A stretch of DNA of 27,072 bases, taken from the NCBI GenBank assembly GCA_020722405.1, contig DYKW01000001.1, positions 18,880 through 45,951 of the forward strand, read 5' to 3'. The translations under genes were made by a program, and so were the position numbers. The stretch is from Anaerolinea thermophila. Lineage in GTDB: Bacteria; Chloroflexota; Anaerolineae; Anaerolineales; DRKV01. Shown here one piece after another: positions 1,570 through 3,300 of this stretch. How positions within the stretch are numbered: position 1 is the first letter of the stretch; the number at the start of each line of letters is the position of its first letter. The notes beneath the pieces are model-generated. The model saw only the letters and a program-made list of their open reading frames with translations, was not told where the DNA came from and searched no databases.

Positions 1570-3300
1570 TTATGGCGGCGTTTCTTGATCTTGGTTGGTT
1601 TGCATGAGCACTTGCGCCTTGGGGACGTTCAATGCACGCTGCAATTCCTGAACTGCGGTTTGCAAGATGGTTTGTGGATCGTTGCTGGCCCGGATGCGAT
1701 TGACGATTTCTGCTGTCAGCCGTTCGCGTTCCGCACGACGCTGGGTAGCGGTATATAACCGGGCACTATCAAGGGCTAGCCCCATTTGCTCAACCAGCGC
1801 GTTTACGAGTGAGCGTTCCTCCGCACTCCAAGGGGGAGTATCCTTAGATTTACGCAACCGCACGACACCGATTATTTGACCGCGAACGGCCACCGGAACG
1901 GCTAACGTGTGCTCATCAGGTTGCACAGCGTGCCCCTCCACTAACGCTTGTTGTAATTCGGGCGACCAATCCTCGTTTACGGGATTGACGAGATCCAGTT
2001 CGTCACACAGGTAGCCGCGTATGTTTTGTGTGTGTAGAAATTGTGCCCATGCTTGCCGGGTGCCTTCGGCGTAAGCCCGTTGTACTGCCTGAAGTGTCTG
2101 CTGGTTTTCAAGGAAAAGACGGGCATTACGAATGGCAACACCTAACTGACCGGCCAAAACTTGCAGAGCTTCCACATCTTCACTCTGAAAAGCACCCTGT
2201 TGTGTACTCTGAATATCAAGTACACCCAGTAAATCACCGCCGGAAACCATGGGAAGTGCGACTTCGGAGCGGGTATGGGGCAGGTCGGGGTTGTCGAAGT
2301 GTGTCGCGTCGCGGCCAACGTCTAGGGCAACGCGTGCCTGGTGTGTTGCGGCAACATACCCAACGTTGCCCTGTGCACCAACTTTGAGCCGGTGTTGCCG
2401 GGCGAGCATTTTACGGCCACCTTCGCTATTGGCAGCACGCAGTACAGCATAGTCGCCCTCGGCGTTTAGCAAAAAGATGCCCACGTGATAAAAGTCAAAT
2501 CGCTCGCTAATCAAATGTACGGCTTTTTGTAAAATTTCATCCAGGTCATTGAGTTCGGCGATGTCCTGGGTTAACTCGGCAATGGCTTCCAACTGGCGCG
2601 TGCGGCTCTCCAGACCACGTGTGCGGCGCTCCAACTCTTGAGAGCGGCTTTGTAGCAAAGCGCGGTTGGCTTGAAGGTCTTGATTGCTTTCTTGTAGGCG
2701 GCGTTGGCTGTCCTGTAGCGTTGCAATAGCGCTACGTAAATCGCGAATGGCGATTTGAATAAGCGCGGTGGCTGCAACTAACGTGATGGACATAGAAAGA
2801 ATCAGGCCCAAGGGAGTGTTATTCTCATTAGGTGGAAACGTATAGATACCATTACCTTCTAGCCAGGCAAAGGCTATCATGACGCCTATACTGACAAAGA
2901 GGAAGAATAAGCGTTCCCTTCTCTGCAACACCAAACTGGCAATGATAATGACCAGCACATACGTTGGAATGGTAGTGCTACGCAGCCCGCCGTTTTGAAT
3001 ATGGGAATAGGTCAGAATTAGCCAGACCACCGTTGTGATGAGCATCCCCCCGGCCCTTACTCGGTTGTGACGGATCAAATAACGTACAAGCAAACCAGTT
3101 AGCAGAAGTAATAGCCCTATGGGAATAATGATTTGAGGGCGGGTAATGCCGAAGGGTGCCAAAAGAATAGCAAACAGTACGGTGACATACAGCACGTATA
3201 AGATGTAAGTAGTAAAGCGCGCCTGCCGGTTGGTTTCCGGGTCGTCGTAAACGGGGGGAGCGAAAAAAGTTTGCATTTGTTTCAACATGATGAACTTCAC
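1570..3300 (-). CDS. Integral-membrane sensor (about 6 TM) + coiled coil + GAF1 + short GAF2 + truncated GAF tail; no output domain
   Basis: Hydrophobic N-terminal ~200 aa; GAF1 YHVGIFLL...NPDLPHTRSEVALPM...GVLDIQS; tail RAERERLTAEIVNRIRASNDPQTILQTAVQELQRAL. The start may be GTG 3300 or ATG 3288/3276. Confidence 0.9.
   Translation of the reverse strand: MKFIMLKQMQTFFAPPVYDDPETNRQARFTTYILYVLYVTVLFAILLAPFGITRPQIIIPIGLLLLLTGLLVRYLIRHNRVRAGGMLITTVVWLILTYSHIQNGGLRSTTIPTYVLVIIIASLVLQRRERLFFLFVSIGVMIAFAWLEGNGIYTFPPNENNTPLGLILSMSITLVAATALIQIAIRDLRSAIATLQDSQRRLQESNQDLQANRALLQSRSQELERRTRGLESRTRQLEAIAELTQDIAELNDLDEILQKAVHLISERFDFYHVGIFLLNAEGDYAVLRAANSEGGRKMLARQHRLKVGAQGNVGYVAATHQARVALDVGRDATHFDNPDLPHTRSEVALPMVSGGDLLGVLDIQSTQQGAFQSEDVEALQVLAGQLGVAIRNARLFLENQQTLQAVQRAYAEGTRQAWAQFLHTQNIRGYLCDELDLVNPVNEDWSPELQQALVEGHAVQPDEHTLAVPVAVRGQIIGVVRLRKSKDTPPWSAEERSLVNALVEQMGLALDSARLYTATQRRAERERLTAEIVNRIRASNDPQTILQTAVQELQRALNVPKAQVLMQTNQDQETPP

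Follow-up and report, generated by a model that had tools for sequence, protein, structure and literature searches.

A conserved GAF-derived tail closing nine clustered sensor proteins of Anaerolinea thermophila

The locus and its sensor paralogs

The window considered here is a stretch of 27,072 nucleotides from Anaerolinea thermophila (assembly GCA_020722405.1, contig DYKW01000001.1, positions 18,880 to 45,951), whose minus strand carries nine paralogous sensor ORFs of 576, 575, 910, 960, 965, 908, 718, 547, and 697 aa. According to their alignment and to checked coordinates and translations, all of them (9/9) end in a C-terminal tail of about 48-50 residues, in which a linker helix, a turn, the helix alpha1, and a short V-x-L strand succeed each other ahead of 7-23 disordered residues (Table 1). 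A 49-position HMM of the tail detects each of the nine paralogs with 38-87 bits. A first reading made from the sequence alone (hereafter the sequence-only reading) had claimed that all nine paralogs end in one common pattern and stop within about 5-20 aa of it; the pattern was recovered throughout and the distance proved close, since 7-23 residues separate the tail end from the stop codon. The interval 1570-2120 on which that reading was centered corresponds to GAF2, tail and stop codon of the 576-aa protein.

The input parts recognizable in such Anaerolineae sensors are dCache, MASE11, and HAMP. A Pfam domain search found no output domain in any of the nine paralogs, and none of them matched the MCPsignal domain. 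GAF1 of the 576-aa sensor shows the order a1-b1-b2-a2-b3-a3-b4-b5-b6-a5 in the AF2 model. In the soluble 697-aa protein, named the hub, the Pfam GAF_2 profile is matched over its full length at residues 480-618, directly ahead of the tail.

Table 1. Position of the sensor domains, tails and candidate partner in the window
Feature	Position	Strand	Remarks
GAF1 of 576-aa sensor, residues 253-390	2131..2544	-	Complete GAF; Pfam GAF/GAF_2 positions 1-133, E 1e-26
GAF2 of 576-aa sensor, residues 405-516	1753..2088	-	Abbreviated GAF: AW helix, five strands, one internal helix, alpha5
Tail linker helix of 576-aa sensor, residues 517-538, TATQRRAERERLTAEIVNRIRA	1687..1752	-	Continuous with GAF2 alpha5 (AF2)
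Tail turn and helix alpha1 of 576-aa sensor, residues 539-558, SNDPQTILQTAVQELQRALN	1627..1686	-	AF2, identity, DCA
Tail strand-like segment of 576-aa sensor, residues 559-567, VPKAQVLMQ	1600..1626	-	Conserved V/I-x-L/I/V pattern
C-terminal extension of 576-aa sensor, 9 aa, variable, low complexity	1573..1599	-	Pairwise identity 0.09
Tail of 575-aa paralog	3354..3497	-	Tail HMM 67.0 bits; translation checked
Tail of 910-aa paralog	5048..5194	-	Tail HMM 54.3 bits; translation checked
Tail of 960-aa paralog	8820..8960	-	Tail HMM 55.3 bits; translation checked
Tail of 965-aa paralog	11668..11811	-	Tail HMM 50.6 bits; translation checked
Tail of 908-aa paralog	14531..14674	-	Tail HMM 53.4 bits; translation checked
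Tail of 718-aa paralog	17254..17394	-	Tail HMM 55.0 bits; translation checked
Tail of 547-aa MASE11 paralog	19425..19568	-	Tail HMM 46.3 bits; translation checked
Tail of soluble 697-aa protein (hub)	21104..21238	-	Tail HMM 38.0 bits; follows a complete GAF
N-terminus of operon-end multi-GAF hybrid histidine kinase	2..805	-	PAS, then GAF2-type core without AW helix or tail; candidate partner

The tail as the start of a GAF domain

When the profile of GAF2 plus tail was compared with the PDB, its tail part matched the N-terminal residues (about 5-58) of GAF chains of the CBCR/phytochrome class (8k9o, 2lb5, 6ozb, 6uv8, and 3oov) and, in 6oap and 8w26, the junctions between REC and GAF and between GAF and PHY; E-values per stretch ran from 1e-5 to 2e-13. 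The query stretch 70-175 recurs 10-20 times, across the GAF junctions, in large proteins with tandem GAFs. By hhalign, the tail falls in register with the linker and alpha1 of the GAF1 of this same family (columns 2-41, E 5e-4). Pfam, applied to five isolated tails, matched that of the hub (PF01590 positions 1-27, E 0.026) and returned nothing for the remaining four. The proposal that the tail corresponds to the opening elements of a GAF (linker helix, alpha1, beta1) is well founded on the alignment to GAF1 and on the PDB profile matches. The complete GAF fold, a five- to six-stranded antiparallel sheet with a C-terminal helix, is not attained by the tail, which we regard as a GAF fragment rather than a domain because the protein ends 7-23 residues past the first strand and AF2 models it as helix-turn-helix-coil.

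Spread and conservation of the tail

At a threshold of 35 bits or more, 514 copies of the tail were counted in 103 related Anaerolineae loci, retrieved with the 18 closer rows of the homolog alignment as query, and in database proteins. This recurrence far exceeds what chance would produce. As many as 491/514 of these strong copies are C-terminal (80 aa or less from the ORF end), and the tail HMM shows one strong C-terminal match of 40-74 bits, internal GAF starts scoring 10-25 bits. Among 76 homologs the tail is the best-conserved region of the protein, with a mean pairwise identity of 0.58 for its linker helix, the top segment, and 0.55 for its alpha1; the GAF1 core reaches 0.49 and the GAF2 sheet 0.31. 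The conserved features include a broad hydrophobic face on alpha1, two positions of the strand-like segment that are 97-98% hydrophobic, and the solvent-facing charged residues R293, R296, E297, R308, D312, and E323 (numbered as in the modeled piece 230-576), each conserved at 80-94%. The extension that follows has a median length of 20 aa in 457 proteins and is rich in G, P, E, A, S, and D. The identity ranking and the terminal position of 491/514 copies agree with the earlier claim that the tail is kept by selection and is not decaying.

Neither the tail nor the GAF2-tail unit is represented in NCBIfam, where only GAF-containing equivalogs were matched, below threshold. Our literature searches on tandem GAF in Chloroflexi/Anaerolineae, on MASE11 and on truncated, partial or split GAF found no description of a truncated-GAF tail module.

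GAF2 is abbreviated but closed

GAF2 is a divergent, shortened member of the GAF family. Its consensus start reads RRAYGELSRxAWxxLL...LGY, and Pfam GAF profiles match it over positions 57/79-133 only; PF01590 scores 27.6 bits on the 576-aa protein (cut-off 22.4), for positions 79-133 only, and 18.1 bits on the 960-aa paralog. As the sequence-only reading had noticed, the canonical start is thus missing and GAF2 opens with a YGE..AW..GY segment, which both the consensus and the partial Pfam match confirm. VIA, run on the GAF2 model, gave Z 8.9 to PDE5 GAF-B (2xss_B) and 7.9 to DevS GAF-B (2vks_A), and many further GAFs at Z 6-7.

In the AF2 models GAF2 is a closed five-stranded mini-GAF (core pLDDT 90-95), with or without GAF1 present. 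Direct coupling analysis (DCA) pairs the AW helix with GAF2 alpha5 in antiparallel register (24-120, 26-118, 27-119), and the AW helix therefore sits at the alpha1 site of GAF2.

Modeling and co-variation of the tail

The packing of the tail was deduced from DSSP, pLDDT, and co-variation. In the AF2 model of the piece 230-576 of the 576-aa protein, a single helix (264-309) comprises alpha5 and the tail linker, the second helix of the tail spans 313-328 with a pLDDT of about 77, and the final strand is modeled as coil with pLDDT falling to 46-58. A homodimer prediction with two copies of GAF2 plus tail had a score of 0.19, under the mark of 0.42, and counts neither for nor against contacts of the tail between chains.

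The DCA used 374 sequences (Meff about 288), a modest depth. Of the top 100 pairs none joins the tail to GAF2, and of the top 200 one does; for the positive control, GAF1 alpha1-beta1 versus its own core, the counts are 17 and 29. Within the tail, 13 pairs of the top 100 join the linker to alpha1 plus strand as an antiparallel hairpin ladder, a signal that may partly reflect the split between SNDPQ and SLDxx subfamilies (position 311/146). The strand also pairs with the turn and with the start of its own alpha1 (148-171, 148-169, 151-166, 160-165). After realignment, core-by-tail pairs made up 11% of the top 100 and 19% of all pairs. A single weak coupling joins the E strand to the tail strand (86-171, rank 34); considered as a beta1-beta6-like pairing, it was treated as noise because it is isolated and the second candidate, 82-165, fits no common ladder with it.

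Combinations of GAF2 and tail

An AW-type GAF2 precedes the tail in 406/514 copies (79%) and a strong tail follows 407/487 AW-type GAF2 copies, the other 80/487 being without tail. Elsewhere the tail stands behind complete GAFs (43/514, the hub included), and some GAF2 copies precede ordinary GAFs instead of a tail. GAF2 and tail behave as a supermodule, which even ends proteins with nine full GAFs. In P0147 and P0016 this unit is repeated with low-complexity spacers of 35-45 aa; P0016 also presents a tail fused directly to a GAF2-type core, and this fusion makes a full Pfam GAF (570-718, positions 1-133), so that tail and core are structurally compatible. Similarly, complete GAFs are formed in family members by an internal tail together with a GAF2 core lacking the AW helix.

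The sequence-only reading had interpreted the tail as completing GAF2 in cis or in trans. Completion of GAF2 was not borne out, docking in trans on another protein being a separate possibility, given the closed GAF2 in AF2, the 0/100 tail-GAF2 couplings, the AW helix at the alpha1 site and the tails found after complete GAFs. One of the outcomes which that reading had itself set beforehand as speaking against it, namely GAF2 folding without the tail, is what the AF2 model presents. Nor is a circularly permuted GAF made of GAF2 core and tail supported, as the sheet is closed with the AW helix filling the alpha1 place and neither the AF2 model nor DCA, without enrichment after realignment, points to packing of the tail on the core. 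What stands of the initial interpretation is a GAF-derived, retained tail and an unusual GAF2 start; what finds no support is the completion of GAF2.

As a side observation, the 79% pairing and the supermodule behavior could mean that GAF2 and tail are structurally coupled more closely than modeled, which counts against autonomy of the tail, as does the weak 86-171 coupling.

The kinase closing the operon

Receivers, receptors, sometimes a ParA-like protein, and a multi-GAF HisKA-HATPase-REC kinase follow each other in this order, and the arrangement recurs in distant genomes. Pfam resolves the operon-end kinase into PAS, a short GAF, 10 or more further GAFs, HisKA, HATPase_c, and 2 REC, an architecture shared by related loci. 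In nearly all of the 40 listed operon-end kinases, the first GAF-like domain is a GAF2-type core or partial core without AW helix, one exception having it. No CheA or CheW is listed among the neighboring genes, which encode receivers, a ParA-like protein and the GAF hybrid kinase. A frameshift between the 315-aa ORF and the 2979-aa kinase ORF was considered and dropped, as a run of N lies at their junction.

The H-box of the operon kinases lies 20-24 residues past the last GAF. Mimicry of a DHp-like hairpin by the tail was rejected, the tail having an S-N-D-P turn at the place of the His and no conserved His. A grouping of the kinase N-terminal cores with the cores that follow an internal tail was rejected too; they form a separate cluster in a tree of GAF2-type cores, based on 102 columns and poorly resolved.

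Interpretation

We give an even chance to the reading in which the tail is an autonomous GAF-derived end-piece, forming a hairpin tip that would likely offer a docking or output surface toward the hybrid kinase of the operon. The tail would derive from a GAF of the phytochrome/CBCR class, such as those lined up in tandem arrays, and correspond to its first third, with interdomain linker helix, alpha1, and beta1. It would prolong the alpha5 helix of the last GAF and turn at the S-(L/N)-D motif, after which alpha1 and the V-x-L strand may fold back on their own linker to give a small helix-hairpin-plus-strap unit ahead of the disordered extension. GAF2 would be a closed mini-GAF with the AW helix filling its alpha1 position, not completed by the tail. 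In a dimeric receptor, two such hairpins could form the membrane-distal tip of a helical spine, and this tip may be the surface by which receptors devoid of enzyme reach a shared partner, of which the multi-GAF hybrid histidine kinase closing the operon is the likeliest candidate.

Three other explanations have to be weighed. The tail may provide the missing alpha1 and beta1 of GAF2, in cis through a circular permutation (a GAF array having been duplicated and truncated) or by a swap between the two chains of a receptor dimer. The absent canonical start of GAF2, its co-occurrence with the tail as a unit, the repeats of this unit with spacers in P0147 and P0016, the full Pfam GAF produced by the P0016 fusion and the weak 86-171 coupling would all fit. 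We nevertheless hold this to be unlikely, as AF2 closes GAF2 without the tail and leaves the tail strand a low-confidence coil, tail-GAF2 couplings are nearly absent next to the GAF1 control and core-by-tail pairs stay under their 19% share after realignment, the AW helix takes the alpha1 site, and each partner occurs apart from the other, tails behind complete GAFs and GAF2 ahead of ordinary ones. A mere structural cap, which would end or stabilize the alpha5/linker helix (and the receptor dimer) past the last GAF while output passes through GAF1 or GAF2, appears equally improbable. It agrees with the plain continuation of alpha5 seen in AF2 and with the internal contacts that the tail keeps from the N-terminal third of an intact GAF1 (linker-beta1 12-48 and 14-50, linker-alpha1 17-32). 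Moreover, solved tandem GAFs and phytochromes commonly make their dimer contacts through the helices alpha1 and alpha5 of the GAF. However, a cap would not be expected to show the top conservation of the protein, solvent-facing charges included, nor a sequence far more uniform than that of internal GAF starts.

Alternatively, alpha1 and beta1 of the tail might insert in an incomplete GAF of another protein, mainly the N-terminal GAF2-type core that follows the PAS of the kinase, a possibility to which we give a rather small chance. By such reversible fold complementation, the receptor stub would dock on the helix-less core of the kinase or on a sibling receptor, and many sensors without kinase would feed a single one; we find this version quite doubtful as well. 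The first GAF-like domain of nearly all 40 listed kinases lacks the AW helix, an internal tail and an AW-less core make complete GAFs in family members, the tail strand has two unsatisfied edges next to an alpha1 with a broad, conserved hydrophobic face, and receptors and kinase are always co-encoded. On the contrary, the N-terminal cores of the kinases cluster apart and are not nearest to the cores following a tail, beta1 is the central strand of a canonical GAF and difficult to insert in trans, many receptors would face a single acceptor site, and DCA suggests that the tail strand packs on its own hairpin.

Significance

Known inputs and no known output characterize hundreds of sensors in Anaerolineae, where a single operon often carries 4-20 of them. 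The sole element common to their output end is the stub, which is also the best-conserved part of the protein, and its binding partner would explain the signaling of a large, unstudied class of receptors. Since the stub does not appear to be the missing piece of GAF2, the question is that of its partner, the operon kinase first, and not of an intramolecular fold. As a domain fragment that selection maintains as an independent module, the tail is a clear example from nature. To our knowledge, coupling of receptor and kinase by a split GAF has not been described for bacterial signaling.

Comparison with known systems

The tail resembles the N-termini of phytochrome/CBCR-class GAFs (6oap, 8w26, 8k9o, 2lb5, 6ozb, 6uv8, and 3oov), with which it shares the motif (R)xERERLxxxIxxxIRxSLDxxxILQTxVxExRxxLxxDRVxV and the same order of elements. 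In those proteins, however, this segment opens a complete GAF or PHY, whereas here the protein stops 7-23 residues past beta1; its strand has turned amphipathic (V-x-L), and its sequence varies less than that of internal GAF starts. With its two GAFs and long continuous helix, the receptor end is also similar to the tandem GAF-A/GAF-B of PDE2A, PDE5, PDE6, and the cyanobacterial cyclase CyaB2, and the whole AF2 model matches the tandem-GAF structures 3lfv, 1mc0, and 1ykd. Unlike these enzymes, where a catalytic domain follows the GAFs, the second GAF here is a five-stranded mini-GAF and then only the stub follows. If tandem repeats had been duplicated and truncated into a circular permutation, certain intermediates would be expected, and these are indeed present (core-tail-core-tail arrangements and a tail-core full GAF), but neither AF2 nor co-variation lends support to a permuted fold.

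The soluble NreA, which controls the sensor kinase NreB, consists of one complete GAF, and we know of no truncated-GAF tail in it. The sensors described here are comparable as GAF proteins that lack an enzymatic output and would exert their effect by binding to a kinase. The chemoreceptors (MCPs) differ in that no MCP signaling domain, CheW or CheA was seen here, and in that the tail is a GAF fragment of about 48 residues rather than a long four-helix coiled coil. By analogy only, the tail nevertheless recalls the hairpin tip of MCPs, with varied inputs, HAMP, and a conserved membrane-distal helical tip without enzyme, in a system where receptor genes lie together with those for a single kinase, receivers, and a ParA-type ATPase.

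Receptor array and input domains

The minus strand of the window harbors nine co-directional paralogs, named here by their length in amino acids. Eight are membrane sensors and the 697-aa protein, the hub, is soluble. Unnamed multi-TM heads serve as inputs of the 576- and 575-aa proteins, the 547-aa protein uses MASE11, and the remaining membrane sensors have dCache with HAMP. Each membrane sensor pairs a complete GAF (GAF1) with a short, GAF-like second region (GAF2), and the hub has two complete GAFs. No known output domain was found in any of the nine paralogs.

The hub carries at its N-terminus an MshE-type c-di-GMP-binding motif (NCBIfam NF053729, 47.4 bits for a cut-off of 38, E 1.2e-12), and could be a receptor for c-di-GMP. 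In the database, the 576-aa protein is 572 aa long and begins at an ATG located four codons after the GTG taken by the ORF finder, so that this ATG is probably the true start. By eye, the translations of the dCache paralogs (e.g., 910, 960, 965, 908, and 718 aa) present a signalling-helix-type motif, L-E-x-x-V-x-E-R-T, in the linker between HAMP and GAF1. Within GAF1, the top co-varying pair of the alignment spanning GAF1, GAF2 and the C-terminal tail (coupling score 6.0, the next pair reaching 2.6) is by far the strongest and may represent a specificity pair located within or close to the GAF1 pocket.

Coordinates of features in the window, in this assembly (G000) and in related sequences
Feature	Location	Strand
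MshE-type motif, 697-aa protein	residues 38-95; window 22841-23014	minus
Start region, 576-aa protein	window 3286-3300	minus
Probable start ATG, 576-aa protein	window 3288	minus
Top co-varying GAF1 pair	positions 88 and 131 of the modelled piece (residues 230-576 of the 576-aa protein); residues 317 and 360	
Tailed fragment at contig edge	G000 contig C94, 3-422	minus
Locus of the hybrid kinase just left of the window (L004)	G000:C216:9600-19700	
Operon-end kinases, examples from L001-L107	L001 12382-; L016 11573-	
First GAF-like core of the kinases	related loci; window 2-805	
Internal tail plus core, protein P0016	residues 570-718 (Pfam GAF positions 1-133)	

The tail as a conserved terminal module

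All nine paralogs had been read as ending in one C-terminal pattern matching the start of a GAF. The tail spans about 48 residues (linker helix, turn, helix alpha1, and short V-x-L strand) and is followed by a variable extension. The shared pattern is borne out by the alignment and by a tail HMM of 49 positions built from homologs, which gives 38-87 bits on each of the nine tails; all their coordinates and translations were verified, and the stop codon lies 7-23 residues beyond the tail end. Elsewhere in this incomplete 1.79-Mb assembly just one further strong tail turned up, on a 140-aa fragment at a contig edge (38.2 bits), and the genome probably holds more tailed receptors left unassembled.

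We sampled 61 loci from Anaerolineales/Anaerolineae genomes, 42 from metagenomes and additional database proteins, in which 491 of 514 strong tails end up at most 80 aa from the end of the ORF. Even where a protein has nine or ten GAFs that are complete, a single strong match (40-74 bits) appears, lying a few residues short of the C-terminus; the starts of internal GAFs reach no more than 10-25 bits. Among 76 homologs, mean pairwise identity is 0.58 in the tail linker, 0.55 in the tail alpha1, 0.49 in the GAF1 core, 0.31 in the GAF2 sheet, 0.25 in the tail strand and 0.09 in the terminal extension. The strand retains hydrophobic residues at two positions in 97-98% of cases (V/I-x-L/I/V), the extension (median 20 aa) is enriched in G, P, E, A, S, and D, and the charged residues R293, R296, E297, R308, D312, and E323 (numbering of the modelled piece) are each 80-94% conserved. 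The earlier proposal that selection keeps the tail is supported, and this element forms a specialised module at the protein terminus.

Relation between GAF2 and the tail

GAF2 had been described as abbreviated and devoid of the canonical start, which holds: its consensus begins RRAYGELSRxAWxxLL...LGY and Pfam GAF profiles match it only with their last 55-75 positions. AlphaFold2, run with alignments of 76 and 96 rows, predicts a long helix bearing the AW motif, then a pair of short strands, a single helix, a meander of three strands and alpha5, with a core pLDDT of 90-95. The AW helix co-varies with alpha5 in antiparallel fashion (pairs 24-120, 26-118, and 27-119) and so takes the alpha1 position of GAF2.

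The sequence-only reading further held that the tail completes GAF2, a role that is not supported and is contradicted by the models, the couplings, the position of the AW helix and the separate occurrence of the two parts. Both models close GAF2 without the tail, which extends straight from alpha5, turns, forms a 16-residue helix and ends in coil (pLDDT falling from 77 to 46-58). Mean-field direct-coupling analysis of 374 distinct sequences covering GAF1, GAF2 and the tail, at a modest effective depth (Meff 288), recovered as positive control 17 couplings in the top 100 and 29 in the top 200 between alpha1-beta1 of GAF1 and its own core, among them a beta1-beta2 ladder, one beta1-beta6 pair and several between alpha1 and beta2. 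Between the homologous alpha1-strand part of the tail and GAF2 there were 0 and 1, respectively, and 13 of the top 100 fell inside the tail. When GAF2 and tail were realigned separately with L-INS-i and the couplings recomputed, core-by-tail pairs made up 11% of the top 100 against 19% of all pairs, and tail-by-tail pairs 33% against about 9%. Finally, 43 of 514 tails, including that of the hub, follow a complete GAF, and 80 of 487 AW-type GAF2 are followed by an ordinary GAF, not by a strong tail.

Other observations do favor a link between the tail and GAF2-type cores. Behind most of the 23 internal tails, at a distance of 3-45 residues, comes a GAF2-type core that lacks the AW helix, and the two together make a complete Pfam GAF, as in P0016; tail and AW-less core are therefore structurally compatible when the tail comes first. 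Such an arrangement is the expected residue of permutation by duplication, the permuted fold itself being unsupported. AW-type GAF2 and tail behave as a supermodule: this GAF2 precedes 79% of tails, the pair also closes proteins whose nine other GAFs are complete, and in P0147 and P0016 it is repeated behind low-complexity spacers of 35-45 aa.

Couplings inside the tail are consistent with a hairpin, linking the linker (303-311) to alpha1 (316-325) and the strand to the start of alpha1 and the turn (148-171, 148-169, 151-166, and 160-165, GAF2-plus-tail numbering). Position 311/146, which separates SNDPQ from SLDxx subfamilies, may inflate some pairs. Contacts of these kinds also occur in intact GAF1 (linker with beta1, 12-48 and 14-50; linker with alpha1, 17-32), so the tail seems to retain, as a small self-contained unit, the local structure native to the first third of a GAF.

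Operon context and a possible docking role

In distant genomes, a recurrent operon comprises two receivers and 4-10 or more tailed receptors, in many cases a ParA-like ATPase as well, and then a multi-GAF HisKA-HATPase_c-REC hybrid kinase. In this genome, a very large hybrid kinase lies downstream of the ParA-like gene and encodes at least 10 GAFs, HisKA, HATPase_c, and two REC; a run of N separates its putative PAS/short-GAF head (315-aa ORF) from the 2979-aa body. Of 97 operon-end kinases, 92 have a last GAF that ends no more than 60 residues from the H-box; among the 45 listed one by one, it ends 20-24 residues before the H-box in 44. This spacing implies rigid helical coupling.

In nearly all of 40 kinases with a listed domain order, the first GAF-like domain is a GAF2-type core, or part of one, without AW helix or tail, the L099 kinase being one exception whose first core carries the AW helix. 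In this genome's kinase, the core follows a PAS domain. These AW-less cores are candidate acceptors for the tail; in a tree of GAF2-type cores they stand apart from receptor GAF2 cores and do not group with cores following a tail.

Our preferred reading, at about even odds, is that the tail would be an autonomous GAF-derived hairpin tip acting as docking or output surface of the receptors. The docking step we infer only from conservation, position and operon context.

The tail among known GAF proteins

No description of the tail module was found in the literature, and Pfam alone barely detects it. Its interpretation as a truncated GAF is supported by profile comparisons. Hhalign brings it into register with the linker and alpha1 of GAF1 from the same family (E 5e-4), and an exhaustive search of 1.8 billion representatives returned 25,005 matches, the stretch from the end of one GAF through the junction to the start of the next recurring 10-20 times per protein in tandem-GAF proteins of 1-4 kaa. 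Among solved structures, the closest folds to GAF2 are PDE5 GAF-B (Z 8.9) and DevS GAF-B (Z 7.9). In a profile of GAF2 plus tail run against all PDB sequences (per-stretch E-values 1e-5 to 2e-13), the tail part (positions about 123-170) matches the first 5-58 residues of GAF chains of the cyanobacteriochrome/phytochrome class (8k9o, 2lb5, 6ozb, 6uv8, and 3oov), and the profile also hits two domain junctions, REC-to-GAF in 6oap and GAF-to-PHY in 8w26.
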